Positions 1 through 21,808 are shown, counted from the first letter of the stretch. The stretch is DNA of 50,252 nt from an uncultured Bacillota bacterium (GCA_947303895.1 CAMYZQ010000002.1:1-50252); one strand, 5' to 3'. Numbers and translations are program-made. The notes: generated by a model from the sequence alone, not told the origin.

Positions 1-1086
1 TAAAGAAGTACAATATTTATTTAAATCTATCCTAGTATCTTCTCTTTGTAAATCAACAATATGTTTTCTAAAATTATTATCTTGTATTTTCTCTAGTCTA
101 TCTTCTACATCCTTTATAGATGATACATAACAAAATTTTCTAAGCTCATCATTTGTAAATACTTTCTTTTGAAAGTCATAAGCAGAATCGATTAAAACTA
201 CATTTCCTATAATTATTGATTCATATATTCTTTGGGCTAAATCTCCCCATGACTTATATATAGGATCTCCAATAATTACAGTCGCCTTAGCTTCAGCCAT
301 CTTAGATCCAAATTTATCATATTCTACTGATTTTCCAAAATTAGGAGGATTTAGGGTCTCTATTTTTTTATGATTAAAATCATCAATAGAAATTTTTCCA
401 AACATTTCTACTTTAAATTTTGGATCATATCCAAAATAATATTTAATCATATCGTCTTCTCTTCTTCCACCTCTAAATGTACCTCCATACAGAAGATCAT
501 ATGATGTATTTTCATTAAATGGATAATAATTCATTGTAAGTAGTGGAAACTTTTCAAACGGGAAATATATTACATCTTTTATAGGAACTAATTTTTTAGC
601 TTTATCTTTTACTTTATGTACAAATCTAGCTTGAGAAATATATATAATATCATCTCTAGTAATTAAAATATCTTCTTTATTATAATTACTTGCCCACTTC
701 TTTTTTTCTATAGAAGGCCAAATCTGCTTAAACAACAAATTACAATCACACATTAAATAAAATACTTTACCTTTAAAATGATTTATAATATAGTAATTTA
801 AAGTTTGTGCAGGGTCATCTACTCCTCCAAAATAATTTACATTTCCATTTAATATAATAAGAGCATTATACTGTCTATCATTTATATTTTTATAATCATC
901 TTCAATATTATAAACTGTAAAATCTTCTGGAGTTAAATCTTTATCTAAAACTTTTGTATAAGCATCTACATCAATTCCTGCAGTAGTAAGAATTTTTATA
1001 ATAGAGAGAGTTTCTCCTGTTCCTCCACTTGTACCAGTAGATGATATTGAGATTCTACTACCTAATTTTATTACTGCTACTTTCAT
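1..1086 (-). CDS. bgt: DNA beta-glucosyltransferase-like enzyme (phage T4 Bgt family); 3' end runs off the window
   Basis: This ORF is not in the supplied track. Reading + strand triplets 1-3, 4-6 ... up to 1086 I found no tta/cta/tca, so the minus-strand frame is open throughout. It starts at ATG 1086-1084, an ATGA overlap with the stop of 1083..2387. My hand translation gives MKVAVIKLG..NGNVNYFGG..FYLMCDCNLLFKQIWP..YGGTFRGGRRE..VIIGDPIY..QRIYES..VVLID. This is colinear with T4 Bgt as I recall it (MKIAIINMG, NSSINFFGG, YYLFTDIRLPFSQSWP, YGGSFRSGQRE, LIIGDKNY..LRVWET..VMLID). Confidence 0.8.
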   Translation of the reverse strand, partial: MKVAVIKLGSRISISSTGTSGGTGETLSIIKILTTAGIDVDAYTKVLDKDLTPEDFTVYNIEDDYKNINDRQYNALIILNGNVNYFGGVDDPAQTLNYYIINHFKGKVFYLMCDCNLLFKQIWPSIEKKKWASNYNKEDILITRDDIIYISQARFVHKVKDKAKKLVPIKDVIYFPFEKFPLLTMNYYPFNENTSYDLLYGGTFRGGRREDDMIKYYFGYDPKFKVEMFGKISIDDFNHKKIETLNPPNFGKSVEYDKFGSKMAEAKATVIIGDPIYKSWGDLAQRIYESIIIGNVVLIDSAYDFQKKVFTNDELRKFCYVSSIKDVEDRLEKIQDNNFRKHIVDLQREDTRIDLNKYCTSL

Positions 1087-2387
1087 CTTATAATACCACA
1101 ATCCTTTACAACTTCTATAAAATCTTCTTTAGAAGTCCATTTATTATCTACATAATCTATTAATTTATTCATAATATTTTCAGACTTTATAAGTCTATAA
1201 ATATCAAGCTTATTATCTAGAATTCTCATATCACCATAGGCAATATCATTTACAAGATCAAAATCTTTTTCATATACATGCATAGAAAAAGCATAATGAG
1301 TATATGATCCATATGATACTCCCAATCTATCTGCAACATATTTCTGAAGAGATATGAAGAAACTTAAATCATAAGACAATCCAAATATCACATCATTACT
1401 TCTCATCACTGTAGTACAATTAAGTTTATTATCTCTTATCATAAAAGATAAACAAATTGTACATATTTCATCTTTCGTATCTTTTACATTAATATTTGGA
1501 GTATTAAAATTCAATATTGCTCTTCTAGATGATGGATCTTGTTTCAGCAAATCTATAATAGTTTCAATCTGATTGAAACCATGCTTTTTCTGTAAAACAT
1601 ATCCATACGCAGAATTACTTGTCACTCCATCATCACTTATCTTATCCCAAAACTTAGAAAAATGTCTGATAAATGCAAGATCATTTCTTCCAGACCAATA
1701 CCACAACATTTCTCCAATAAGATAATTATATGAAATATTTCTAGACTTAAGATTTATAACATCATTCGTAATATCATTTATAGTAAAAGAATAATTACTA
1801 AGTTCTCTATAGTCACCTCTAGTAGTCTTTCCACCACTAATTAATTCACCTTTTTCTATAAGGTCTTTACAAACATTTTTATATGCAATATTTATATTTG
1901 TCTGATTCATTCTAGAAACAATCCAAGACCAAAGTCTATCATAAGCACCATCTAGAGCAATATCTACAACATACATATTATTATATTCCCATGCAGAAAA
2001 TATATAAGCATATTTAGTAAATAACTGATTCTGTTGCTCAATCTCTTCTAGATAATTATATTCTTCTCTTTGAATAAGTCTATCTTTAAGAATATTTATA
2101 TCTGAAGTAATAAAAATTATAAGCAAATCATTATTATCAACTATTGCTCTCATAATCTTATTACCACCATCAAAATCAAACTTTGGTTCTCTTCCATAGA
2201 TTTCTGGATATACAAGCTCTCCTATATGAAATCTATCAAATACAGTATTTCCTTGATACAAAGCATTTAAATGATTTTCCAAAGTTTCAGATGGAAAATG
2301 ATTATAACTCATATTATAATTAGTTACTAACTTATTTGCTAAAGTTGTCTTACCTATTCCATCAGGACCTTCAAGAATTATATTCAT
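1083..2387 (-). CDS. Fusion protein: N-terminal P-loop (d)NMP kinase (thymidylate-kinase-like) plus C-terminal ThyA-family pyrimidine hydroxymethylase (T4 gp42 dCMP hydroxymethylase-like)
   Basis: The N-terminus has the Walker A motif GPDGIGKTT and a DRFHIGELVY motif, as in dTMP kinases. Residues ~165-434 carry ThyA-fold motifs: LIGEMLWYWSG, SNSAYGY and DPSSRRAILNF. The stretch DEICTICLSFMIRDNKLNCTTVMRSNDVIFGLSYD aligns without gaps to T4 gp42 DFMCTNTVQYLIRDKKINAVVNMRSNDVVFGFRND. The catalytic Cys (C309) and the base-discriminating Asp (D340) are both conserved. A strong RBS is present (AGGAGGAAAGTATATG). Confidence 0.75.
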   Translation of the reverse strand: MNIILEGPDGIGKTTLANKLVTNYNMSYNHFPSETLENHLNALYQGNTVFDRFHIGELVYPEIYGREPKFDFDGGNKIMRAIVDNNDLLIIFITSDINILKDRLIQREEYNYLEEIEQQNQLFTKYAYIFSAWEYNNMYVVDIALDGAYDRLWSWIVSRMNQTNINIAYKNVCKDLIEKGELISGGKTTRGDYRELSNYSFTINDITNDVINLKSRNISYNYLIGEMLWYWSGRNDLAFIRHFSKFWDKISDDGVTSNSAYGYVLQKKHGFNQIETIIDLLKQDPSSRRAILNFNTPNINVKDTKDEICTICLSFMIRDNKLNCTTVMRSNDVIFGLSYDLSFFISLQKYVADRLGVSYGSYTHYAFSMHVYEKDFDLVNDIAYGDMRILDNKLDIYRLIKSENIMNKLIDYVDNKWTSKEDFIEVVKDCGIIR

Positions 2388-2404
2388 ATACTTTCCTCCT
2401 ATAT

Positions 2405-2423
2405 TAGTATAATAATTATACTA
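2405..2423. promoter_or_regulatory. 19-bp perfect palindrome between the polymerase stop and the RBS of the kinase-hydroxymethylase gene (candidate operator or small RNA hairpin)
   Basis: tagtataat-a-attatacta has 9-bp arms that are exact reverse complements. It sits about 10 nt upstream of the AGGAGG RBS. Confidence 0.3.
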
Positions 2424-2433
2424 TCTTTATATA

Positions 2434-4836
2434 TTATTGTAAATACTGTACTATTAATTCTCTTGTACTTTCTGGATGATTTTGAACTAAATTATCAATT
2501 GATACTCCTGAATTATATTCCTTAACTATGTTTTTAGAATATTCTTCTTCATACCAATGTTTTTCTATTGTTGGATCACATTTAATAGGAACATTAAGAT
2601 CTAAAGCACAAGTCTTCATTAAATATACTAATCTATCAGAAGCTTCTTTTGCATATTGTTCATCACATTGTCCAATTAACTCATCATGAACACCTATTAG
2701 AAGTCTAAAATTATATTTCTTCATTAAGTCATCATTATAAATAGCAATCATTGCTTTTTTAGTCATTGTAGCTGCAGAACCTTGGATTCTTGCATTTACG
2801 CATTGACGTTTAGCTCTACTTATAAATCCACCATTCTTTATAATTTCTAATCCTTCTTTTTTAGCTTCTTGCTTTACTTTATCATAATCTTTAAAAGAAA
2901 TATTTTTAAGTTTATTTTTATACTTATTTATTAATTCTTCATCTACTTTATTACCTGAAGATCCTATAAGTGGATTAAATGACTTTTTATTTTCCATTTT
3001 AAATGAATATTCTGGAAGTAATAAATCTGGAAGTCTTCTTCGTCTACCCCAAAAATCCTCTACATAACCTTTTTGACAAGCTTCTTCTTCAGTTTTTCTC
3101 ATCCAGTCAGAAACTTCAGGGAATCCTGTATGAAAGTCTTCTACTATCTTTATTGCTTCATCTAACGAACAATGCATGTCTTCAGACAATTTCTTAGGTC
3201 CCATACCGTAGCTCATTCCAAGATAAAGAGTTTTCATCTGTTTTCTACGTTTTTTTCCTTCAAGATTGTCTGAACCATCTTCCCAGTGCTCCATATTTTC
3301 CCAATAGTCATTACCATATACTCCAGAACCAAGAGTAGCATAAAGATCTCTTCCAGCTTTATATGATTCTAAGAGTTTATGATCTCTTGAGAAAGCAGTT
3401 AAAATTCTCGGTTCTTGTTGAGAATAATCTGCTCCTATAAGTATTTTTCCTGGATCTGCACAAAACATCATTCTAACTTCAATATTTCTAGCAGGAATTT
3501 GCTGAAGATTTGGATTTGTACAACTAAATCTACCTGTATCAGTACCTAATTGATTAAAATTAGAATGGATCTTATTATCTCTTTCAGAAGCAAGTTTGGG
3601 AAGAGCGTCTATAAAAGCATCTAATAATTTTAATAAAGTTCTTTGTTCTATAATTAATTTTACTATTGGCAAATCAATTTGTTTAAGAATATCTTCTCCT
3701 GTACCTCTTGGATTATTTTTATCTATAACTGATACCTTTAATATATCATATAGCAATATTGCTAATTGTGTAGGACTAGTTAGTGCGGGTGGATCTTCAA
3801 GCTGTTCTGCTCTAGTTTTTTTATTTTGAACTTCTTCTCCTTTTACTATTCTAAATGCTTTTTCTTGAGCATAAGGAGTCAACTTCCAAGCAGTAATTTG
3901 AGGTCTTAAATTTTCTAATTCTTTATTTAATTCTGAATTAATAATATCTAATTTATGGTGATATTTTTTACTTAATCTTTCACAGTATTCCTTATCAAGA
4001 GCAATACCATCTAGCTCCATTTCTGAAACTACTTCAATAATTGGAAATTCTACATCATAAAGAAGCGAAAGTAATCTTTTATTTTCTGGCTTTATTAATT
4101 CTTTAAATTGATATTGATAAAGTCTATAAGTTTTATATGAATCTGTAGCTGCATACAAAGCAAATAATTCAGGATCAATAATTGCATATTCTAGTCCTTC
4201 AAATAAATGATCTATAGAATATTTTTCTTCTGTAGGATCAATTTTCATTACATATTGATCCTTTAATCTTGCAGACCACTCATTCTCATTTAATATTCTA
4301 GCAGCAACTTGAGAATCCCAATAAATAGGAAAAGTACAATTACATGTACATTTAAGAACCTTATAGTCAAATTTTCCATTATGTGTAATAATTTTTACAC
4401 TATTAAGTTTCTCTACTCCTTCTTTTATGTCTTCTTCAGTTAGTTGCCAAGAAAGTCTTTCTCCAGTATCTTTATTTATATGATTTACTGGAATATAAGC
4501 TGCAGGCATTCCTTCTGTATAAAGACAAAGACCCATAAGCTTACATGTTAAAGGGTCAAGACTATTATTTGTTTCTGTATCTAAAGCTACAATTCCTATT
4601 GTTTTGCATTTATCTATATAAGAATCATATTCATCTTTTGATTTAATGACTATAGTAGAATCTGCATACTTTCCTAAAATCTTATAGACAGATTTTTCTA
4701 TATGAAAAAGCTTTTCTTCAATAGAAATTTTAGATTCTTTTTTCTTTACTTTTTTAGGACTATTAACTTTATCTAAAGCTTTTTTAGATTTTTCTATTGA
4801 TGATTCTACTACGAATTCATCTCCCCACAAATTCAT
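2434..4836 (-). CDS. Family A DNA polymerase (Pol I-like) with 3'-5' exonuclease domain
   Basis: Exo I motif VALDTETN. Pol motif A IGADYSQQEPRIL. Motif B KRRKQMKTLYLGMSYGMG. Motif C LIGVHDELI. The ORF is 800 aa and uninterrupted. Confidence 0.95.
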   Translation of the reverse strand: MNLWGDEFVVESSIEKSKKALDKVNSPKKVKKKESKISIEEKLFHIEKSVYKILGKYADSTIVIKSKDEYDSYIDKCKTIGIVALDTETNNSLDPLTCKLMGLCLYTEGMPAAYIPVNHINKDTGERLSWQLTEEDIKEGVEKLNSVKIITHNGKFDYKVLKCTCNCTFPIYWDSQVAARILNENEWSARLKDQYVMKIDPTEEKYSIDHLFEGLEYAIIDPELFALYAATDSYKTYRLYQYQFKELIKPENKRLLSLLYDVEFPIIEVVSEMELDGIALDKEYCERLSKKYHHKLDIINSELNKELENLRPQITAWKLTPYAQEKAFRIVKGEEVQNKKTRAEQLEDPPALTSPTQLAILLYDILKVSVIDKNNPRGTGEDILKQIDLPIVKLIIEQRTLLKLLDAFIDALPKLASERDNKIHSNFNQLGTDTGRFSCTNPNLQQIPARNIEVRMMFCADPGKILIGADYSQQEPRILTAFSRDHKLLESYKAGRDLYATLGSGVYGNDYWENMEHWEDGSDNLEGKKRRKQMKTLYLGMSYGMGPKKLSEDMHCSLDEAIKIVEDFHTGFPEVSDWMRKTEEEACQKGYVEDFWGRRRRLPDLLLPEYSFKMENKKSFNPLIGSSGNKVDEELINKYKNKLKNISFKDYDKVKQEAKKEGLEIIKNGGFISRAKRQCVNARIQGSAATMTKKAMIAIYNDDLMKKYNFRLLIGVHDELIGQCDEQYAKEASDRLVYLMKTCALDLNVPIKCDPTIEKHWYEEEYSKNIVKEYNSGVSIDNLVQNHPESTRELIVQYLQ

Positions 4837-4978
4837 CTAATATCTCCCAAAATGTTCTTCCATTAACTGGTTCTGATATACTATTTATATATTCAGCAAA
4901 TTCTTGATATTCTTCTTCAGTCAAGTCAACCATATCACCAAACAATTCTTTTGCTTCATTATATAATTTCATACTCAT
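4817..4978 (-). CDS. Small hypothetical protein (53 aa), below the ORF-track cutoff
   Basis: Hand translation gives MSMKLYNEAKELFGDMVDLTEEEYQEFAEYINSISEPVNGRTFWEILDEFVGR*. An AAGGA RBS lies 8 nt upstream. The stop overlaps the polymerase start by 20 nt, which suggests coupling. There is no recognisable domain. Confidence 0.35.
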   Translation of the reverse strand: MSMKLYNEAKELFGDMVDLTEEEYQEFAEYINSISEPVNGRTFWEILDEFVGR

Positions 4979-4994
4979 TTTGTAAATCCTTATT

Positions 4995-5031
4995 TTATAA
5001 AAATAAGCCAGGAGTATTAGCTCCTGGCTTT
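4995..5031 (-). terminator. Rho-independent terminator downstream of the SSB gene
   Basis: The minus-strand RNA reads AGCCAGGAG-CUAAUA-CUCCUGGCU, a perfect 9-bp GC-containing stem (5006-5014 / 5021-5029). It is followed by UAUUUUUAU and starts 5 nt after the TGA at 5035-5037. Confidence 0.85.
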
Positions 5032-5034
5032 AAA

Positions 5035-5841
5035 TCAATAATATCTCTGAGGTCTCTGAAGACTTCCTTCAGTCATTGGAGCTGGACCTCCATCTGTATA
5101 AGGCTGTTCATAACCATTAGGAATAGGTCTTGGAGCAAGATTTGGATTACCATTTGAATGCATAGTTGAACTATTAGGATCTGATGAAACATTAGTATAT
5201 TTCATATCCTGAAATCCATTAGAACTTACTTCTTTAGTTCTTTCTGGAAAATTTCCAGTTCTCATAAAAGCTATCATTTCATCTGCAGTCTTATCAAGAA
5301 CCATTCTTCCAAGAACTCTAAATTCTTCATCTTCAAAAGCTGAAGTATCTTTCTTATAATCTTCAAGAGTATAAACTTGAGGATTTATGTTCGGAATAAT
5401 ATCATATGTTGTATCAAGCCCAGATCCATGCCTAATTATCTTGCACATAATATTTGAAAGAGGACCATAATTATCAACATAACTTTTAAGCTTAGGCACA
5501 TATGTACCAGCCGGTCTATCCCAAACTACAGCATGAGGCTTCTTATTCTCATCATACTGAAGAAGTTTAATAAATACTCTCTGCTTTACCTTTTCTCCAC
5601 TATTACAGAAAGGACACATTTCCAGTGGATCATGAGGTGTTCTAAGACAATTTACATTCCTATTTGGAAAACTACTCTGTCCTACTGTTACTGGATGAAC
5701 TGTAAGAATCTCAAGATCAGAAACCTGATCACAAAGAATTCTAACAATAGCTTCATCTCCATCTGACTTTAGTGAAAAGAATCCTACATTAAACTCATTA
5801 TCACTACTTGATTTAACATCTTCATAACTAATCTGTGCCAT
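5035..5841 (-). CDS. ssDNA-binding protein, T4 gp32-like (zinc-containing)
   Basis: GDEAIVRIL resembles gp32 GQAVIRFL. CLRTPHDPLEMCPFC gives a C-x4-H-x5-C-x2-C pattern, like the gp32 Cys3His zinc site. The gene lies next to primase and polymerase. I moved the start to ATG 5841 (MAQISY...) because AAAGGAG lies 7 nt upstream of it; the track start at 5871 lacks an RBS. Confidence 0.6.
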   Translation of the reverse strand: MAQISYEDVKSSSDNEFNVGFFSLKSDGDEAIVRILCDQVSDLEILTVHPVTVGQSSFPNRNVNCLRTPHDPLEMCPFCNSGEKVKQRVFIKLLQYDENKKPHAVVWDRPAGTYVPKLKSYVDNYGPLSNIMCKIIRHGSGLDTTYDIIPNINPQVYTLEDYKKDTSAFEDEEFRVLGRMVLDKTADEMIAFMRTGNFPERTKEVSSNGFQDMKYTNVSSDPNSSTMHSNGNPNLAPRPIPNGYEQPYTDGGPAPMTEGSLQRPQRYY

Positions 5842-5897
5842 CTTTATTCTCCTTTTATAAATCTTAAACAACTTAGCACTTATTTATATATTATAAA

Positions 5898-6878
5898 CTA
5901 ATTTTTATGAATTGTAAAAAACCTCATATAATTAGTCTTATCCATAATTCTTAAATTATCGATTTCTTCCTTAGATAAATCATTTATATCTTTCCCTTCA
6001 GGAAGTAATAAAACATCTATTATAATATTATCTGGCATATTTTCAATAAATCTCATTATACCATGTCTTCCTGCCATATCTCCATCTAAAGCTAAATGAA
6101 ATATTCTTATACCAGATTTTTTTAGAATTTCATATTGATCTTTAGTCCCAGTTCCTAACAAAGCAACTGCTGACTTATCTAATGAATTAAGATACAAAGC
6201 ATCAATTTGACTTTCAACTACATATACTTCTTGTATATGCTCTTTTTTTATAAAATTTAAAAGATAAACTGGCTTACCAATATCTTTTGGTAAATAAAAA
6301 TATTTACTATTAACACTTCTTTCTGATATACCTAATAGATGATTATTCTCATCCCATATAGGAAATGTTATCGCATCTTTCTCTTTATCCCATCCAATTT
6401 TATACTTAACAATAATTTCTTCTGTAAGTTTTCTTTTAAACATATATGGGTGAAAATATGCATATTGATCTAAAATTGATTCATCTAAATATTCTATTTT
6501 ATTCTTTTCTAAAGATATTGTAGGAAGAGAAATTAATTCTTCAGTAATAGTTTTAGAAAAATTGTCTATTAGCCACTGCTTAGCTTCTTCAATTCCACAA
6601 TTTAAACATCTAGAAACTAATTGATAAAGCTGTCCTTTTGATCCACAAGTAAAACATTTGTAAAAACCAAATGGTACTTCATTATTATCTGTTCTATTAT
6701 AAACATAACAAGATGGATGATTTTCTAAACCGTCTTTATGCCAAGCACAAGTAATAGCAATATTATCTCCTCTTTTAGCTATATCTTTTAAAAATCTACC
6801 ATCAGTTTCTTGTCTTAATCTTTTAAGAATATCTTCTAAATTTGAATCTATTATATGATTATTTATTATAAGGTTCAT
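5898..6878 (-). CDS. DNA primase (DnaG-type: CHC2 zinc finger plus TOPRIM)
   Basis: Zinc finger CAWHKDGLENHPSC...CFTCGSKG. TOPRIM motifs VYVVESQIDALYL and LALDGDMAGRHG. Confidence 0.85.
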   Translation of the reverse strand: MNLIINNHIIDSNLEDILKRLRQETDGRFLKDIAKRGDNIAITCAWHKDGLENHPSCYVYNRTDNNEVPFGFYKCFTCGSKGQLYQLVSRCLNCGIEEAKQWLIDNFSKTITEELISLPTISLEKNKIEYLDESILDQYAYFHPYMFKRKLTEEIIVKYKIGWDKEKDAITFPIWDENNHLLGISERSVNSKYFYLPKDIGKPVYLLNFIKKEHIQEVYVVESQIDALYLNSLDKSAVALLGTGTKDQYEILKKSGIRIFHLALDGDMAGRHGIMRFIENMPDNIIIDVLLLPEGKDINDLSKEEIDNLRIMDKTNYMRFFTIHKN

Positions 6879-7047
6879 AATCTATGTAACCGTCTTCTTT
6901 TAAACCACCAGTTCTTTCATAAAAACTTAAAATATTCCAAATATATAAAAGTGAATCTACATCAGAATCGTTTCTTATACTTTCTATTAAATAAAATCTG
7001 ATAAAATCCCTCAATGAACTAGCTTCATTTTCTGTAATCTCAATCAT
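6859..7047 (-). CDS. Hypothetical small protein (62 aa)
   Basis: This ORF fills the gap between helicase and primase with coupled overlaps: 1 nt with the helicase stop and 20 nt with the primase start. No motif was recognised. Confidence 0.4.
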   Translation of the reverse strand: MIEITENEASSLRDFIRFYLIESIRNDSDVDSLLYIWNILSFYERTGGLKEDGYIDYEPYNK

Positions 7048-8312
7048 TAAAAGACATCTTCTCCTTCTTCATTAAATTCTTTTTTTAACTCTTCTACACC
7101 TTCTCCATCAAGAGCATTTGCTTCTTCAGGAACATATGTAAATTTTCCATAATTTAAATCTATTAAATATGTAATATCTTTCATATTTGCAGAATCTCTT
7201 GATTTAATAAGATGTAAAGTCATTAAACCATTCTTTTGCTCAAAGAAAATTACTATTGTACTGTCTTGTCCAATTCTATCTGCTTGTGCGATATGTTCAA
7301 GACCTACACCATTTTCTGTTGAAGATCTATTTTGCTGCGAAACAGATATTATTGGAATTTTCTTTAATACTTGAAGATTCTTTAAATCTTTAGAAATATT
7401 AGAAGCTTTTTCTACAGGAGATCTAGCATGCCTATCATCTTCAAGAAGTGAATGTTGATCTATAAATAATATATCAAGATTTTCTTTTTCTATAAAAGCT
7501 CTTAATGCAGATACTCCAGCTGGACCATCTATCATATTTGGTGTAAGAACTTTTAAAAATCCTTTATATTTATTTGGAAGATTATCTAAATATCTTTTAT
7601 AATCATTTTGAACAGTTCTATCACCTTTAGTTAAAGCTGTATTAGAAATATTAGCAATAAGTGTATCTACTCTATAGCCAACTTTTCGTTCACTCATTTC
7701 TCCAGAATAGATACCTACATTCAATCCTTGTTCTACTGCAGCAACTGCACATTTAAATAATACCCAAGATTTTCCTTGATTAGATCTTGCTACAATAGTT
7801 GCTAATTCTTCTTGTCTATCCCAGCCACCAATAATTTCATCTAGTTCTCTAAAGCCTGTCTTAACATAATACTTATCAAAATTTTCACATCTTTCTACAT
7901 AAGCATCATATCTTTCTGTGTTTCTTAAAATATCTACAGCTTCAATATGCTTTGCTTTTACTACAGCTTCACTTGAAGATGTATATAATTGCATAGCCTC
8001 ATCTATTTTTCCATCAACAAGAAGTTGCCTAATATTATTAAATATTTCAGCTAATTTTCTAGTATTACGATCATCATATAATTTATCTATTAAATAATCT
8101 GAAGATTCATTAACCTCAACTATATCAAAATTAGGAAATCTATCTAAAAAAGTTAATTTATCTGGAATACTTCCATATTCATTTAAATGATCACAAATAA
8201 ATTTATACTCTTCCTTATAGTCTGAGAAAAACTCTTCATTTATATTATTCATAAGAAGCATTGAACTGTCTTTCGTATCAAGAATCCAGTTCAAAGTTTG
8301 AAGTTGAATCAT
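7047..8312 (-). CDS. Replicative DNA helicase (DnaB family)
   Basis: Walker A ARSNQGKSWVLF. GEMSERKVGYR. Walker B ILFIDQHSLL. SQQNR motif. The N-terminal helical domain has a typical length. Confidence 0.9.
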   Translation of the reverse strand: MIQLQTLNWILDTKDSSMLLMNNINEEFFSDYKEEYKFICDHLNEYGSIPDKLTFLDRFPNFDIVEVNESSDYLIDKLYDDRNTRKLAEIFNNIRQLLVDGKIDEAMQLYTSSSEAVVKAKHIEAVDILRNTERYDAYVERCENFDKYYVKTGFRELDEIIGGWDRQEELATIVARSNQGKSWVLFKCAVAAVEQGLNVGIYSGEMSERKVGYRVDTLIANISNTALTKGDRTVQNDYKRYLDNLPNKYKGFLKVLTPNMIDGPAGVSALRAFIEKENLDILFIDQHSLLEDDRHARSPVEKASNISKDLKNLQVLKKIPIISVSQQNRSSTENGVGLEHIAQADRIGQDSTIVIFFEQKNGLMTLHLIKSRDSANMKDITYLIDLNYGKFTYVPEEANALDGEGVEELKKEFNEEGEDVF

Positions 8313-15478: not shown

Positions 15479-18400
15479 CTATTTATTCATCTTTGTAGTG
15501 ATATATCTAAATGATAGTTCATCAAAGTTTAGTTGTGGGATTACAAATTCATTGTACACGTGATTTGAATTCCAAAACATCTTAGGATTTAAAGGATTTT
15601 CTATTAGATCATTTGACTTAGGAATAAATGAATAATTATATTCTTCTTTATCGTCTAGTTGTTGTATCTTTGTTCTAATATCATTAAATCCCTCTCCTAA
15701 TGCAGGATTATTCTCATATTTAAATATATCTAATACAGTATATGTTACGGTCTTAGAATCTTCATCAATTTCAAACTCTAAACTTGAATCAACAGTAGAT
15801 AAGTCAGCGTAGAATTCAGGTTCTTTATAATATGTTTTACCTGAATCTATACTTGTATCATCAGATAATATATAAGTAGAAGTATCTAATTCATACCAAC
15901 CTTTCTCTTTTGGACTAGCACCAGAAAACATTGATTGATCTACTACTTCTAATAATGAAGAACCTTTATCAGAATAAGTATTATCTGCTAATCTATATGC
16001 TCCATTAACATATACATACCAACCTAATTCATATGGGGATTTATCAGTTAAATAAGTTATTAATGAAGGAAGTTTTATTAAACTATGTAATGAGTCTATA
16101 TCCAGCATTAAATATTCATATCTATCACCTGTGAATATATTCTTTCCTTCATTAGCATATGATCTTAATAAATTAGTATAGGATGAATCAAATGTATATG
16201 CCATATCATCGTATAAAGTTTCAGAAGATACTGCAGGAGCATCTATATTATATCCTTCTTCTATCTTTTTAATATAGTTAGCAGTTAAATTAATATCATC
16301 TTTCATATTCATTCCTAATAGGTAATGACCTGCCGGTAACCCAATAGGTAATGATATTTCTTGTGGAGCATATGATATATCTTCACCTTCTCCAGAAACA
16401 TCTGAATTAAAGTACAAGAAAGTTGAATAGTTACTAGTATCATATGCATAATATGATCCATTTGCAAATGGAACAAATGCATATAACTCATTTAAAACAT
16501 TTTCACCAAGAATATCCACAGTGGAAACATCTATAAAAGTACCTGATTTATTTTCTACAGGATATTTCAATTGGAAAGTAATATTAGTCTGAGTATCTCC
16601 AGATAAAACAGCAATAGGAGTAATACTAGAATCACTATCATATAATTCTAATGAATGATTATATTCCAGTTTTTGACCACTTGTACTTGATGTATTTAAT
16701 ATTAATGAAGAATAACCTCTCCACTTGTATTCATCTACAGACATAGTTTCTAAATCTATAATATCTTCGCCTGCTCTTTGATAAGAAACTTTATAAGAAT
16801 CAAGATCTAATATGCATTCTGTATTACTGAATACTGGCCAATTAACATATGATTCTGACATTTCAGAAGCTTCAAAAATTAAAGTATCATCTGTTGAAAA
16901 TGACTCAATATCATTTTGAATTAATGTTAAAGATGTATTTGTCTGTAATGATGTCCATAAATCTCCTATATTTTTTATAGGATCATTACGTATATAGTCA
17001 TTATCTAATGCTGTGCATGTCCAAGCTTTAATTTCACCACAGTTTCTATTATATAATTCTTTTACTTCATAGTATTGCTTATAAGTATATCTTACAAAAT
17101 CATTAAATAAATAGAATTTTGGTAAGAAGTAAATATGTATTGTACCATATTCACTAACATTATTTTTCGAGTTAGGGAATAATGCTGCAAGTTTTCTATC
17201 TGTATCTAATTTAATAAAAGGATTACTTGTGTCTGGTACATAATAATTTGTATCAAAACCTGTATCACCTTCAAAATTAGAACGCCATATTTCTGAAATA
17301 TAGAAATATGCATTAGATGCTGCAGCAGTTTCACCTTCTAATGCTGGGTAAATATCTCTAACTATTAAAGCTTTATCTATAAGACTATCACTAGTTACTC
17401 TAATATATCGCCCTGTTTGTGGATCTCCAGCAGTAGTTTGTCTGAAATTCTGAACTACCCAAGTCGTATCAACTTTTACCCATTCTGTTGGATCCCATGT
17501 TTCTGAAGAAGTTGCAACAATACATCTATAGTTTTCACTACTATATTTTACAACAGCATCATAATAATAAATGTTATTTGATACATAATCAGGAACTGGA
17601 TAATATGGATATTGATAAGTTACAGCAGATGACCATTTACTATAAATGGCTTCTAATTGGCTTGTACTGTCTGCCTCATTTAAATCTGCACTAGAAAGCG
17701 TATTACTATATAAAGTAAATAAATACTGTAAAGGTGATCTACTATAAGCTCCTTCATACTCTGATAAAACTACACCTGCATCCAAATAAGATTTATTTAA
17801 ATTTCTATAATAATAGTTTGTATTTATAGCACTTGGCTTATAGTAGAAACCAGAATTACTTACATCAGCAGAATATAATGAACTTCTTTCATTAAATAAT
17901 TCTATATTTATAGAATTTTCTATAGAAAGTATTTCTGGAGTTGTATCTGAGGTCAGTATATAATTATCATCTACTTTTTCGTATAAACCTTCTTCATTAG
18001 GATTTGTTAAATATGAAACAACTGCTTCTGCAGAACCAGATGAATCTATATAATAAGTTTTATATATAGGGGATAATAAACCTAAAGCTTCTGGCCCTAC
18101 AGAAAGTGCCTCAGATAAATCTAATGTTGTATAGCTTCCAATATCACCTAGAACTAAATTAGAATATTTTGTTCCAGATAAAATATTCCTGTCTATTGTT
18201 GAAGTATCTTCAGTTGCTGTAAATCTGTTTTGAGACGTAGCTGATGAATTATCATTTAAAGCATAAGTATCTATAAACTTATTATTATTAAATGTTGCCA
18301 ATTCATATAAACCTAATTCTTTAGGGTTACTCAAATCACTTGATTTATAAAGATTTACTTCTTTAAAGCAACCAGTATCAACTGTATCTGATACATAAAC

Positions 18401-21400
18401 TTCTTTTGTTACTCCATTATCATCAGTTATATAAGATTTTATATAACTTCCTGGATCTTTTCTCATTACTAATACATAGTAATATTTACCAGAAACAGAA
18501 GTGCTATCTAATGATCTTATAAATACTGGTTTATAATAATTTGTACCATCAATTACTTTAGTATCATAAGTAATAATATAAGAAATTGATGAATCGTCAT
18601 GAGTAACTTTTTCATATAAACCTAAAGCAAATGGATTAGCATCAGCTGGTAGGCTTTCTGGATTTAATGGGTTTGTTAAATCAACTTCAAATAAACCACT
18701 ATCAAAAGGTTTTACTTTTTGATTATCATCAGTAACGAATTGGAATAAACCATCTGAAATTAAGTGTGCAATATCATCAATGTTTACATAATATAAAGAA
18801 TTTTCAATCTCAGAATATATTGAAGATTCGACACCACAATTTCTAATTAAAGTTGTACCAGGACCTAATACTGCAAAATCTGTACTATCTTCATTTGTAT
18901 AGAATAATGCTTCACCGTTTCTTAATGTATATGTATTAATTGTTTCAGAATACATATTTTGTTCTACACTATCAAAAGTATCAAATAAAGTATATGATTT
19001 TAAATTTGAATTATTTGAATAAGTAGGTTCATTTAAGATCCAAAAGAATTTATATTTATCTTCTCTATCTAAAGTTATAGTAGCAATTTCTTGAATACTT
19101 ATTTCATTAGTACCAGAAATTACATTATTTATGATAGCAGAACTATTCCTTATTTCTGTTTTATAATTTTCATTATATGTTGATATTTCATAATAATTCT
19201 TAGTAGGATTAACTGTAAAATAAGGAATAATTTTTGCTTTAACGAAACTAGATAATGCAGAAACAGAAGCTTGCGGTGCTATATCAAATGAAGGTTTAAT
19301 AATAGTACCAGCACTACACGCATATACAGTATATCCAATTATAGTAGTTGCATCACTATCTTTAATAGGATTATATAATATAAAATATTCATTATTAGCT
19401 AATTTATAAGAAGCTCCTGCTGATATACCTTTATATAAAACATATTCAAAATGTACATTATTAGGAAAAGTCTTTGTTGGGTTAAAATGAGGTCTATATA
19501 ATGAAACAGTTTCATTATCTTTTAATGTATATGTTTTCCTAATAAATGATTCGATATTATCTACTGAATATGATGTTACTGAATCATTTTGAATATCAAT
19601 CTTAGCTTCACCAGTTATATTACTAATATTATCTATGTAACTAATATATTTCTGACTAAGATGATATATAAATGTTTTATCAGGTACTAAAAGTTGAGTA
19701 GTTCCAGCAAGAATAGATTTACACATAATATCTTTTTTCATAGATGATGAAATAATATTTGATAAATCTCTATAGGATTCTGGAGTATATATACTCATAT
19801 CCTCATCTACTGGTATATCAATATATAAATCTTCATTTTTATCATAATAAGTTGCTAACAAAGAATATGAAATAGGATCTATAGTAATATTTTTTATTCT
19901 ATCGTCACTCTTCTTAGCAATATCTACTAAATATTCTACAGATATAGGTAAACCAAAATCTACTTGTGAACTACTAACATTTTCATATAAACTAGCGACA
20001 ATATTACTAGAAATATCTGTTTGTGTTACTTCATCTAATACACTAAATGTAGAAATATTCATTACTACTGGGTATACTGCTTTAAACATTACAGTATGTG
20101 GTAGTAATGCTTCCACATCTATTTCATATACATTAGAATTATCTGCTGGTGGATTATCAAAAGCAGAATCATTAGCAATTAAAGTATAAATATCTTCTTC
20201 TTCATCATATAACCAATAAGATTTATTTGTGAGCCAAGAAGTATCTTCTGATTTCTTATAAGTGTTTTCCCCTAAAGATAAAATATCTTCATAAGTATGC
20301 TCAAGATGTGAAGTATCTCCTAATAAGGAGTTAAAATCAGGATATGGCTTCATCATAGTAAATGTTTGATTATAAGCAGTTTTATTATTTAAAGCTATAG
20401 CTTTTCTTAATAAATAAAACTTTAATGAGAATGGAGTTAAAGCATCTTTTGTTTTTGGAGCAATAGATTCTAATTCATACCAGTTTTCTTGCTTAGGATT
20501 ATGTACTCCAGAAGTATCAGCTTCAGATAAATCGTTATCATGAATTACATAGTATGTTTTACCAGAATCTACTGATGTATCTGTTGATTTTATAAACTTA
20601 TAATCAAAAGTAGATTCAATATTTGTATTATCTACAATTTGCTCTACTTTTACAATTAAAGTATCTAAATCATGGCTCTTGCTTATAATTTTATAAGTGC
20701 ATTGAATATCATTTGTTCTATCACACACAAAAGCATTAGAACAAATATCTAATTCTTGACTTCTAATATAGTTAAGATAATCTCTTAAGGTAATTAAAGT
20801 TTTAAATGTACCTACTGTTCTTTTATAATTTATATAAGCTTCATCAATTCCTTCTACATCTTTGTGACCAGAGGCTGAAGCAAAATTAGTAATTTTTACA
20901 TTACTAGAATCAAGAACAATGCCTTCAACGTCTCCTCCTACTGAAATAGGAGCTAAGAATTGATTTAATGATTGAGCAGGAATATTAGCAGTTTCTTGTG
21001 GAATTACTAAGTAAGTAATTTCAATACCACTTCCAAATAATTCTGCATAGTTATCAGGAAATTCTAGATAACAAGTATCAGTATTACTATCATATCCAAA
21101 AATATATCTTAATTCATCGTATGAATTTTCATATAAATTATTTACTCTTTTCCAAGAAGAATAATTTTCTTGGTTTGTATTTTTTATAAAAACTCCATTT
21201 TGAGAAACAAAAGAATGAGGAAAATATAATCTTCTCGATAACGGATCTACCATCTGAGCAGTAATAATCTTTTCATTCTCAAACTGATACTGTACTGCAG
21301 TACCTTCCATTGCTACTACATTAACTGCTTTACCATCTGTAGATAATATAGTATTAGATACTACAACCCCTTCTGCTCCTTCTGTCCCTATTATAGAATA

Positions 21401-21808
21401 TATATGAGCAGATTCTGAATCTGTAATAGGAGTAAATTTAGGAATTATATAAGATATTGAAGTGTCAGTAGTACTACCTATCCAAGATATTGAAACAGGA
21501 ACTGAAGCACTTTCATACCAATCCATATAATAACCTAACTGATCATATAATTGTCTAGCATTACCTTCTTGTGTCACTGAAAGTGGAAATGTTTCTAATA
21601 TATTTTTATCAATATTATAGTTACATTTATCAGCTATTAAAGCAGATAATTTTACTAGAATAACACCTGGATCAGATTCGTCAGATATAGATGGATCCCA
21701 TCTATATGTTAATTGCTTAATTAAATCTAAAACTTCTGTGTATATTGCTGAGAAATCTAGATTCGTATAAGAAATTTTTTGATTTTCATTTACTATGTCT
21801 TGTGCCAT
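15479..21808 (-). CDS. Giant (2109 aa) baseplate J-like protein with a long repeat-bearing extension
   Basis: The N-terminus DESDPGVILVKLSALIADKCNYNIDKNILETFPLSVTQEGNARQLYDQLGY is typical of the baseplate J/gp6/gp47 family. The gene follows the gp25-like gene. The ORF is uninterrupted for 6.3 kb. Confidence 0.7.
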   Translation of the reverse strand: MAQDIVNENQKISYTNLDFSAIYTEVLDLIKQLTYRWDPSISDESDPGVILVKLSALIADKCNYNIDKNILETFPLSVTQEGNARQLYDQLGYYMDWYESASVPVSISWIGSTTDTSISYIIPKFTPITDSESAHIYSIIGTEGAEGVVVSNTILSTDGKAVNVVAMEGTAVQYQFENEKIITAQMVDPLSRRLYFPHSFVSQNGVFIKNTNQENYSSWKRVNNLYENSYDELRYIFGYDSNTDTCYLEFPDNYAELFGSGIEITYLVIPQETANIPAQSLNQFLAPISVGGDVEGIVLDSSNVKITNFASASGHKDVEGIDEAYINYKRTVGTFKTLITLRDYLNYIRSQELDICSNAFVCDRTNDIQCTYKIISKSHDLDTLIVKVEQIVDNTNIESTFDYKFIKSTDTSVDSGKTYYVIHDNDLSEADTSGVHNPKQENWYELESIAPKTKDALTPFSLKFYLLRKAIALNNKTAYNQTFTMMKPYPDFNSLLGDTSHLEHTYEDILSLGENTYKKSEDTSWLTNKSYWLYDEEEDIYTLIANDSAFDNPPADNSNVYEIDVEALLPHTVMFKAVYPVVMNISTFSVLDEVTQTDISSNIVASLYENVSSSQVDFGLPISVEYLVDIAKKSDDRIKNITIDPISYSLLATYYDKNEDLYIDIPVDEDMSIYTPESYRDLSNIISSSMKKDIMCKSILAGTTQLLVPDKTFIYHLSQKYISYIDNISNITGEAKIDIQNDSVTSYSVDNIESFIRKTYTLKDNETVSLYRPHFNPTKTFPNNVHFEYVLYKGISAGASYKLANNEYFILYNPIKDSDATTIIGYTVYACSAGTIIKPSFDIAPQASVSALSSFVKAKIIPYFTVNPTKNYYEISTYNENYKTEIRNSSAIINNVISGTNEISIQEIATITLDREDKYKFFWILNEPTYSNNSNLKSYTLFDTFDSVEQNMYSETINTYTLRNGEALFYTNEDSTDFAVLGPGTTLIRNCGVESSIYSEIENSLYYVNIDDIAHLISDGLFQFVTDDNQKVKPFDSGLFEVDLTNPLNPESLPADANPFALGLYEKVTHDDSSISYIITYDTKVIDGTNYYKPVFIRSLDSTSVSGKYYYVLVMRKDPGSYIKSYITDDNGVTKEVYVSDTVDTGCFKEVNLYKSSDLSNPKELGLYELATFNNNKFIDTYALNDNSSATSQNRFTATEDTSTIDRNILSGTKYSNLVLGDIGSYTTLDLSEALSVGPEALGLLSPIYKTYYIDSSGSAEAVVSYLTNPNEEGLYEKVDDNYILTSDTTPEILSIENSINIELFNERSSLYSADVSNSGFYYKPSAINTNYYYRNLNKSYLDAGVVLSEYEGAYSRSPLQYLFTLYSNTLSSADLNEADSTSQLEAIYSKWSSAVTYQYPYYPVPDYVSNNIYYYDAVVKYSSENYRCIVATSSETWDPTEWVKVDTTWVVQNFRQTTAGDPQTGRYIRVTSDSLIDKALIVRDIYPALEGETAAASNAYFYISEIWRSNFEGDTGFDTNYYVPDTSNPFIKLDTDRKLAALFPNSKNNVSEYGTIHIYFLPKFYLFNDFVRYTYKQYYEVKELYNRNCGEIKAWTCTALDNDYIRNDPIKNIGDLWTSLQTNTSLTLIQNDIESFSTDDTLIFEASEMSESYVNWPVFSNTECILDLDSYKVSYQRAGEDIIDLETMSVDEYKWRGYSSLILNTSSTSGQKLEYNHSLELYDSDSSITPIAVLSGDTQTNITFQLKYPVENKSGTFIDVSTVDILGENVLNELYAFVPFANGSYYAYDTSNYSTFLYFNSDVSGEGEDISYAPQEISLPIGLPAGHYLLGMNMKDDINLTANYIKKIEEGYNIDAPAVSSETLYDDMAYTFDSSYTNLLRSYANEGKNIFTGDRYEYLMLDIDSLHSLIKLPSLITYLTDKSPYELGWYVYVNGAYRLADNTYSDKGSSLLEVVDQSMFSGASPKEKGWYELDTSTYILSDDTSIDSGKTYYKEPEFYADLSTVDSSLEFEIDEDSKTVTYTVLDIFKYENNPALGEGFNDIRTKIQQLDDKEEYNYSFIPKSNDLIENPLNPKMFWNSNHVYNEFVIPQLNFDELSFRYITTKMNK

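Follow-up and report, generated by a model that had tools for sequence, protein, structure and literature searches.

A thymidylate-kinase-like domain fused to a predicted dCMP hydroxymethylase in DNA from an uncultured Bacillota bacterium

When the 5-hydroxymethylcytosine (hmC) of DNA is made beforehand as a nucleotide, a kinase able to act on the modified deoxycytidine monophosphate (dCMP) is required. The dNTP synthetase complex of phage T4 physically couples the hydroxymethylase (gp42) with such a kinase (gp1), and the gp1 family is, to our knowledge, the only one characterised and biochemically proven to phosphorylate 5-hydroxymethyl-dCMP (hm-dCMP or 5hm-dCMP). ThyA-fold enzymes also occur covalently joined to the enzyme of a neighbouring step, as in the DHFR-TS of protozoa and plants, for which channelling has been proposed. 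Here we describe a single gene at positions 1083..2387 on the minus strand of a 50,252-nt stretch of DNA from an uncultured Bacillota bacterium (GCA_947303895.1 CAMYZQ010000002.1:1-50252; the whole stretch is hereinafter designated the window), which encodes a thymidylate kinase (TMK)-like P-loop domain followed by a gp42-like ThyA-fold domain (hereinafter designated the fused gene and the fused protein). We favour, with moderate confidence, a reading in which the fused protein is a bifunctional enzyme that would catalyse the first two committed steps of hmC DNA synthesis. The kinase step proposed for it, hm-dCMP to hm-dCDP, is that of gp1 in the T4 complex, the coupling being covalent in the fused protein and non-covalent in T4.

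The fused gene is one ATG-started open reading frame (ORF) of 434 codons followed by a TGA stop (1083-1085), with no in-frame stop under translation table 11, and its length is non-random in stop-codon-rich DNA of ~27% G+C. A Shine-Dalgarno sequence, AGGAGG (2395..2400 (-)), is seen 7 nt 5′ of the ATG at 2387. An earlier note on the window, made from the sequence alone, had described a single polypeptide combining a TMK-like P-loop domain with a gp42-like domain, and the ORF listing, Pfam and PHROGs bear this out: both domains pass their Pfam thresholds within the one ORF, Thymidylate_kin (PF02223) at aa 38-143 with 31.4 bits against a cut-off of 27, and Thymidylat_synt (PF00303) at aa 168-381 with 101.3 bits against a cut-off of 24.3 (E 6.4e-29). 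The PHROGs matches are phrog_160 thymidylate synthase (E 1.4e-47) and phrog_761 thymidylate kinase (E 1.9e-13).

The fusion is real and not an assembly artefact. A 434-aa protein 98% identical to that of the window (P0001) is encoded as one ORF on contigs from three independent samples. The database search for the same architecture that the earlier note had proposed as a check, carried out here as a word-indexed search, returned 120 cluster representatives with 50-98% identity to the fused protein, of which 116 are full length (421-456 aa) and 114 align across 97% or more of its length; in a 1.84-billion-protein library, the kinase-ThyA order is found in four of the clusters formed at 50% identity. 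In an alignment of 117 full-length sequences (A1), the source of all conservation figures given for the fused family, 85 positions distributed across both domains are at least 98% conserved, and the junction region (positions 150-185) contains no gap. The AlphaFold2 (AF2) model built with the family alignment (predicted local distance difference test, pLDDT, 94.3; predicted template modelling score 0.86) has no segment below 50 and no disordered linker, the last kinase helix (148-159) passing almost straight into the first ThyA helix (165-179); as modelled, the fused protein is a compact two-domain unit and not two proteins on a floppy tether.

The recurrence of P0001 in independent assemblies, the more than 110 homologues reaching down to 50% identity, the indel-free junction and its close packing in the AF2 model together establish that conclusion. 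The nearest cultured phages do keep two separate genes, in two of them in the same frame with a stop codon alone between, and one might suppose that a sequencing or assembly frameshift, which the earlier note had named as a refuting outcome, or a lost stop codon had joined such neighbours. With the same architecture recovered from many independent samples and assemblers, the probability of this is negligible. We also considered an internal start at Met160 that would yield a separate ThyA-like protein and rejected it, since homologues do not retain this Met and it has no Shine-Dalgarno sequence in front of it.

The nearest cultured phages in question are the Enterococcus phages VPE25, VFW, Planchet and 9183 (Andrewesvirinae), which encode the closest cultured homologues of both domains at 35-43% identity; their ThyA-like proteins match the hidden Markov model (HMM) of the fused family at 5.2e-86 / 3e-84. 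The fused gene is collinear with their kinase and ThyA-like gene pair, and the junction falls exactly at their stop and start codons. For Planchet and 9183, an in-frame ATG comes directly after the stop codon; the two VPE25 genes overlap by 7 nt. The gene order in VPE25 and VFW is kinase, ThyA-like, dUTPase and b-gt, with separate genes where the window has one ORF; in general, the Enterococcus-phage pairs are followed by a dUTPase gene and by glycosyltransferase genes or b-gt. The cytosines of VPE25 and VFW DNA are bisulfite-resistant and the DNA is restriction-resistant, i.e. modified (PMC4999554, 2016). A 2024 paper on type IV restriction in enterococci, considered as evidence for glucosyl-hmC in VPE25 (PMC11322646), treats phage phi47, the DNA of which is unmodified, and was not used.

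The ThyA-fold domain (aa 163-434; 1086..1901 (-)) carries at its C-terminus a helical extension of ~50 aa in common with the Enterococcus-phage homologues. Its best solved relatives by sequence are the CMP 5-hydroxymethylase MilA (1e-24) and T4 dCMP hydroxymethylase, gp42 (1.1e-15). MilA is also its top Foldseek match (1.6e-17, TM-score 0.69 normalised to the target), and MilA, ThyA and T4 dCMP hydroxymethylase all match at probability 1.00. The fused protein and gp42 (1B5E, 6A9A) are ~30% identical over 178 residues and share the ThyA fold and the complete catalytic set, whereas the kinase domain and the ~50-aa extension are found only in the former. Cys309, which the earlier note had placed at 1461-1463 and called the conserved catalytic cysteine, is encoded there (TGT, 1461..1463 (-)) and aligns with the nucleophiles C148 of T4 and C146 of E. 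coli. The other catalytic residues are likewise in register: Glu226 (1710..1712 (-)), which activates the folate cofactor, aligns with E. coli E58 and T4 E60; Arg288-Arg289 (1521..1526 (-)) with E. coli R126-R127 and T4 R123/R124; R329/S330 with T4 R168/S169 and E. coli R166/S167; and H370/Y372 with T4 H216/Y218 and E. coli H207/Y209. All of these residues are invariant in the fused family. In ThyA the arginine pair binds phosphate from across the dimer, and its conservation suggests that a ThyA-type homodimer may be kept, with two kinase domains per dimer.

Three further positions serve to tell ThyA-fold chemistries apart. Replacement of E. coli N177 by Asp marks a dCMP substrate and replacement of L143 by Asp or Glu marks a hydroxymethyl over a methyl product (PMC6400193, PMC13326640), while Asn in place of D169 marks the flavin- and O2-dependent 5-hydroxy-dCMP synthases such as RB69 gp48 and DLP3 gp80 (Lee et al., NAR 2026, PMC13326640). 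We read these columns after aligning references and homologues to the profile of the fused family, and the published rules for E. coli ThyA, T4 gp42 and RB69 gp48 are reproduced in this alignment. At L143/D169/N177, E. coli ThyA reads L/D/N, an SPO1-like dUMP hydroxymethylase (phage Goe26) D/D/N, RB69 gp48 D/N/D, and T4 gp42 D/D/D; the fused protein, VPE25 and Planchet, like the other Enterococcus-phage pairs, read D/D/D. The corresponding residues of the fused protein are Asp306 (1470..1472 (-); T4 D145), three residues before the catalytic Cys, Asp332 (1392..1394 (-); T4 D171) and Asp340 (GAT, 1368..1370 (-); T4 D179). Gap placement by MAFFT is ambiguous in the Asp306 column, but the HMMER alignments are consistent there (T4 D-F-M-C, MilA D-V-A-C). 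Asp340, the cytosine-versus-uracil discriminator, lies in the motif FGLSYD opposite T4 FGFRND, with Asn at this position in both E. coli ThyA and the SPO1-like enzyme. The position and alignment of this codon are thus as the earlier note had given them, and its prediction of cytosine as the substrate gains from Asp306 and Asp332, both of which fit the T4 type.

The D/D/D signature and the standing of MilA and T4 dCMP hydroxymethylase as nearest solved relatives make it highly probable that the ThyA-fold domain is a folate-dependent, T4-type 5hm-dCMP synthase. All enzymes that might be considered in its place, namely 5-hydroxy-dCMP synthases, dUMP hydroxymethylases, thymidylate synthases and dCMP methyltransferases, have the same fold; similarity is about equal to T4 gp42 (E 1.5e-23) and RB69 gp48 (E 2.1e-23); and databases name the family 'thymidylate synthase' or 'deoxyuridylate hydroxymethyltransferase'. 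The D169 position matters in particular because 5-hydroxycytosine chemistry, published only in 2026, is plausible for a ThyA homologue adjoining a glycosyltransferase. Here, Asp in place of Asn at D169 speaks against a 5-hydroxy-dCMP synthase, Asp340 in place of Asn against a dUMP hydroxymethylase of the SPO1 gp29 type or a thymidylate synthase, and Asp in place of a bulky hydrophobic residue at L143 against hydride transfer giving a methyl product. As all three are invariant in the 117 homologues, and the T4 homologue of the neighbouring glucosyltransferase is annotated as acting on hmC, such other chemistry appears quite improbable.

MilA of Streptomyces rimofaciens (5B6D, 5JP9) has Asp at the N177 and L143 positions, as does the fused protein. 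It differs from the latter in serving a bacterial antibiotic pathway, in its preference for the ribonucleotide CMP and in having no kinase domain. A protein of Agathobaculum phage AB434P2 (OP172633.1, L011:3838-4500) annotated as 'deoxyuridylate hydroxymethyltransferase' carries D183 opposite E. coli N177; the annotation is probably wrong, a dCMP-specific enzyme being more likely.

The kinase domain (aa 1-162; 1902..2387 (-)) belongs to the TMK/deoxynucleoside kinase (dNK)-like P-loop nucleoside monophosphate (NMP) kinases by its above-threshold Pfam match, its P-loop, DR motif and arginines, and its fold. In the P-loop, G7-PDGIGKT-T15 (EGPDGIGKTT; 2343..2369 (-)), G12 and K13 never vary, and T15 is kept in 98% or more of the sequences. 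D51-R52 (2232..2237 (-)), which we take to be the 'DR(F/Y)' motif of thymidylate kinase (TMPK)/dNK-type kinases, combines an invariant R52 with a D51 that is at least 98% conserved. R103 and R107 (RLIQR; 2067..2081 (-)), both invariant in the fused family, are presumably lid arginines, by analogy with the TMPK family. The model of the isolated domain has a pLDDT of 94.8; its best fold match in the PDB is YorR of B. subtilis SPbeta (2AXP, 3KB2; TM-score 0.72-0.74), which has the same small TMK-like P-loop fold, followed by guanylate, thymidylate, adenylate and deoxynucleoside kinases.

Within a genome of roughly 57 kb, pieced together from the window and a further 6.5 kb on a near-identical contig (L004; described below), the fused gene is the sole recognisable NMP kinase and the sole ThyA homologue: in both pieces, tblastn yielded no second ThyA homologue, and no match below E 1 for a gp1-like kinase (best 1.9). 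Considering the fusion, the gene neighbourhood and the lack of another detectable kinase, we judge it fairly likely that the physiological acceptor of the kinase domain is 5hm-dCMP.

The closest stand-alone relatives of the kinase domain, as ranked by the HMM of the kinase family, are those of Planchet and 9183 (1.9e-38) and VPE25 (7.5e-28). Their genes sit directly 5′ of the ThyA-like gene and are orthologous to the fused kinase domain. More distant are a protein annotated 'putative thymidylate kinase' in Acinetobacter phage DLP3, with its relatives (tblastn E 2e-4), and RB69 gp45 (L018:6048-6596; HMM E 6.6e-6). DLP3 gp78 (PQ034586.1 37553-37969), RB69 gp45 and RL38JI gp214 are 'nucleotide kinase' genes that adjoin cytosine-specific ThyA homologues. 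Unlike the fused kinase domain they are stand-alone, and those of RB69 and DLP3 accompany 5-hydroxy-dCMP synthases. The RB69 and DLP3 genes have been listed as a role-less 'nucleotide kinase' within published 5-hydroxycytosine arabinosylation clusters, and by analogy the fusion predicts that RB69 gp45 and DLP3 gp78 would act on modified dCMP.

Comparative evidence from a second domain order bears on the kinase assignment. Searched exhaustively with phmmer, 1.84 billion cluster representatives gave 254 matches at E ≤1e-30, the top 150 of which were sorted by the two domain profiles. The kinase-ThyA order accounts for four of these 150 (P0105, P0121-P0123) and the reverse, ThyA-kinase order for 22 proteins of 470-550 aa (P0141, P0143, P0146, P0149 and 18 others), whose C-termini match the same kinase profile at 1e-8 to 1e-21. 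The remainder are 123 stand-alone ThyA-like proteins (121 D/D/D and two D/D/N) and one stand-alone kinase. Pfam TMK matches three reverse fusions, P0141 (28.5 bits) and P0146 (36.6) above the 27-bit cut-off and P0143 (25.8) just under it. Every fused protein of either order among the 150 carries D/D/D. The existence of both orders implies two or more independent fusions between the same two families, and this comparison speaks strongly for a kinase that works in the pathway of the hydroxymethylase.

Two reverse-fusion contexts were informative (L021:4029-5516 and L024:6001-7485). In both, the gene lies directly after a carbamoyltransferase gene (PF02543/PF16861) and before a DnaE-type polymerase gene, the former neighbour hinting at carbamoylated hydroxymethylcytosine. 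In a third type of fusion, P0126 (616 aa), a TET-associated glycosyltransferase (PF20691) makes up the N-terminus and a ThyA-like domain with D/D/D the C-terminus.

The two domain orders also bear on a simpler account, in which the domains are fused only for co-expression or stoichiometry and the N-terminal domain is a general dTMP/dNMP kinase that enlarges the dNTP pools for a genome of 72% A+T, with neither 5hm-dCMP specificity nor channelling. Pfam and PHROGs do label the domain thymidylate kinase; stand-alone TMK-like relatives occur in phages without evident cytosine modification (e.g. Geobacillus phage E3, Gordonia phages and pelagiphages); and T4 gp1 is itself multi-specific according to database annotation (dTMP, dGMP and hm-dCMP). 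Yet the kinase has been joined in two orders, in all the cases found to a D/D/D ThyA homologue, its closest stand-alone relatives directly adjoin D/D/D ThyA-like genes, and a phage that makes 5hm-dCMP needs a kinase for it, none other than the fused one being detectable in this genome. We therefore regard a general kinase as an unlikely explanation and retain 5hm-dCMP as the preferred acceptor.

Immediately 3′ of the fused gene lies a gene for a DNA β-glucosyltransferase resembling T4 Bgt (1..1086 (-)), cut by the window edge so that 362 of ~369 codons are present. As the earlier note had observed, the two genes are coupled through ATGA (1083-1086), in which the start of the Bgt-like gene overlaps the stop of the fused gene. 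The Bgt-like protein matches Pfam T4-Gluco-transf (PF09198; E 3.8e-25, 89 bits against a cut-off of 27) and phrog_7922 (E 1.9e-52). A full-length copy of 369 aa is encoded on L004, one of the three contigs with P0001, which is 56.7 kb long and 97.9% identical to the window DNA over a shared 12.4 kb. This copy shares 28% identity with T4 Bgt across 361 residues (E 4e-43) and has Asp opposite T4 D100, which we take to be the catalytic base. On the other side, polA lies directly 5′ of the fused gene, an arrangement reminiscent of T4, where the order is DNA polymerase, imm.1, imm, 42 and b-gt.

The description of the two genes as a compact two-gene cassette did not stand, as at least five more genes follow on L004. 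Past Bgt these encode, in order, a CofD/YvcK-like protein (nearer the YvcK/UPF0052 structures), a 226-aa protein with no assigned function, a MobA-like NTP transferase, a dUTPase-family enzyme and a dCMP deaminase. The succession of fusion, Bgt, CofD-like, unassigned, NTP-transferase and dUTPase genes is also seen around homologues with 68% and 51% identity. Further decoration of glucosyl-hmC, or supply of the sugar donor, may be the task of the CofD/YvcK-like and NTP-transferase genes. The three-gene block from the CofD-like to the NTP-transferase gene (L004:12412-14796, past the left edge of the window) is present in L016 and L020 as well.

A gene for an hmC-type DNA glycosyltransferase (Bgt, TET-associated (Pfam TAGT) or T4 α-type (AGT)) is found near the fusion in all eight distinct kinase-ThyA contexts examined, nine if the near-identical P0001 contigs are counted. 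Bgt adjoins the fused gene in the P0122 context, the P0096 and P0045 contexts have TAGT and T4 α-type glycosyltransferases, and the P0078 cassette is minimal, consisting of the fusion, Bgt and a dUTPase only. The P0078 context (L015:1-8631, L014) is a temperate-looking phage with helix-turn-helix repressor/Cro-like genes and Phage_rep_org_N, on a 314-kb contig, and the same fusion is also reported from an Erysipelotrichaceae metagenome-assembled genome. The P0096 and P0045 contexts (L012, L019) are phage-like contigs of 356 kb and 532 kb in which genes for a C5 DNA methyltransferase and a DNA ligase adjoin the fusion. An hmC-type modification would be unusual in a temperate phage or a megaphage.

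P-loop kinases, including those of ViI, M6, SP10 and PhiW-14 that act on 5-hydroxymethyluracil (5hmU), are common in pyrimidine hypermodification clusters, and action on 5-hydroxymethylcytosine has been proposed (PMC8256090). By this precedent the N-terminal domain would phosphorylate the 5-hydroxymethyl group itself, on the nucleotide or in DNA, in the manner of 5-HMUDK, creating a leaving group for downstream hypermodification in which the otherwise unexplained CofD/YvcK-like and NTP-transferase genes could take part. We consider this very improbable. The domain has the fold and motifs of NMP kinases (EGxDGxGKTT and an invariant DR; YorR, TMPK, dNK and guanylate kinase). The P0078 cassette lacks any gene beyond the fusion, Bgt and the dUTPase, and Bgt needs a free hydroxyl. 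Finally, a tblastn search with the kinase domain over 50,697 phage records (E ≤1e-3) returned 60 records, none from Salmonella, Pseudomonas or Delftia phages and a single one from a Bacillus phage (vB_BanS-Thrax4), a search that has BLAST-level sensitivity only for 5-HMUDK-type homology.

From the observed architecture, conservation, signatures, homology and context, we infer the following pathway for the preferred, bifunctional reading. In the C-terminal domain, Cys309 would attack C6 of dCMP, with Asp340 selecting and protonating cytosine and Glu226 activating methylenetetrahydrofolate (CH2-THF); the polar Asp306 would then admit water, and not hydride, onto the exocyclic methylene intermediate to give 5hm-dCMP. 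The dUTPase-family enzyme may help to supply dCMP if it hydrolyses dCTP too. The N-terminal domain would use ATP to convert 5hm-dCMP to 5hm-dCDP, host NDP kinase would produce 5hm-dCTP, and the phage PolA would incorporate it, after which the translationally coupled Bgt-like enzyme would glucosylate hmC in the DNA. Genuine channelling of the substrate between the two domains, which the earlier note had suggested, seems doubtful. In the comparison with DHFR-TS, the partner and the step differ: DHFR recycles the folate product, whereas the partner domain here would act on the nucleotide product.

Several points weigh against this pathway. Although the kinase domain is TMK-like, as the earlier note had it, the comparison drawn there with gp1 does not extend to homology (BLASTP E 13; family HMM E 3.8); gp1, a separate and unrelated protein encoded ~50 kb from gene 42, has its structures 1DEK and 1DEL outside the top 50 fold matches of the domain. 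The domain might phosphorylate dTMP or some other dNMP instead. RB69 and DLP3 carry a gp1-type dNMP kinase in addition to the TMK-like kinase of the cluster, and the gp1-type kinase of RB69 was shown to phosphorylate the modified dCMP; because such a kinase is present in the same phages, their TMK-like kinase may do something else. Moreover, the diagnostic-residue rules are correlative and drawn from a limited number of characterised enzymes.

A bolder generalisation can be offered tentatively, and we hold it to be considerably less probable than the pathway itself: that TMK/YorR-like kinases form a second class of modified-dCMP kinases, unrelated to gp1 and employed for hmC-type DNA by phages outside the T4 group; that the fusions of both orders are channelling enzymes passing 5hm-dCMP straight to the kinase site; that the orphan kinases of RB69, DLP3 and RL38JI thereby obtain a function; and that the cassette, through its CofD/YvcK-like, unassigned and NTP-transferase genes, makes an undescribed cytosine hypermodification beyond glucosyl-hmC.

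Both kinds of enzyme are already known, as are fusions of ThyA-fold enzymes with pathway neighbours. The apparent novelty lies in the covalent joining of kinase and hydroxymethylase, found in two orders, and in what it implies, namely that hmC synthesis in these phages would depend on a TMK/YorR-like and not a gp1-type kinase. In the searchable literature, which is incomplete, we found no published description of a kinase-hydroxymethylase fusion, and source databases name the family only 'hypothetical protein' or 'thymidylate synthase', while automatic domain-architecture databases probably already list the combination. No single-ORF equivalent is present among 50,697 deposited phage genomes, where the four records covering the whole query are in-frame two-gene versions and none reaches 80% coverage of the reverse fusion P0141 across the collection; a BFVD fold search for the two-domain architecture gave no full-length match (best TMq 0.53).

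The fusion, its reverse-order twin and the Enterococcus-phage gene pairs act as a 'Rosetta stone' that points to a thymidylate-kinase-like enzyme for this step in phages of Gram-positive and gut bacteria, and the same evidence suggests a role for the unassigned kinase genes in 5-hydroxycytosine clusters. A 434-aa protein that may convert dCMP to 5hm-dCDP on its own would be a convenient tool for the enzymatic production of hmC nucleotides and DNA. The family could also help to recognise, from sequence, uncultured phages with glycosylated cytosines, whose DNA would be open to attack by type IV systems but protected from many restriction enzymes and Cas nucleases. The result, while not surprising in principle, is a clean, testable lead on an unassigned family of kinases and on hmC-type DNA as a widespread feature of uncultured Firmicutes phages.

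Taken with the 6.5-kb L004 tail, the window seems to comprise essentially all of a phage genome of ~56.7 kb with ~28% G+C. Positions 1-8000 have no close relative in the phage collection at the DNA level, the longest match covering 7% of the query at ~70% identity. PHROG annotation of 20 other window ORFs gave tail and baseplate matches only and no further nucleotide-metabolism genes. GC skew is negative across the whole window (1-50252), and the 35 ORFs of at least 100 aa from 6 kb to its right end all lie on the minus strand except for one embedded ORF of 116 aa.

A strong terminator-like hairpin (5030-5005 (-); 10 bp, six GC pairs, T-run) is followed by a promoter-like site with 11/12 matches (4986-4958 (-)) ahead of a small ORF and polA, and a second promoter-like site, TTTACA-17-TATAAT (2415..2443 (-)), also with 11/12 matches, lies directly 5′ of the fused gene. 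These features suggest separate early or middle transcription units, although such sites are only suggestive in AT-rich DNA, and the promoter and terminator scan gave no more sites in total than shuffled sequence would lead one to expect. Between the replication module and the baseplate/tail-fibre genes lies an ORF of 2109 aa (15479-21808 (-)) with no PHROG match at E ≤1e-3, whose product could be a giant virion or injection protein.

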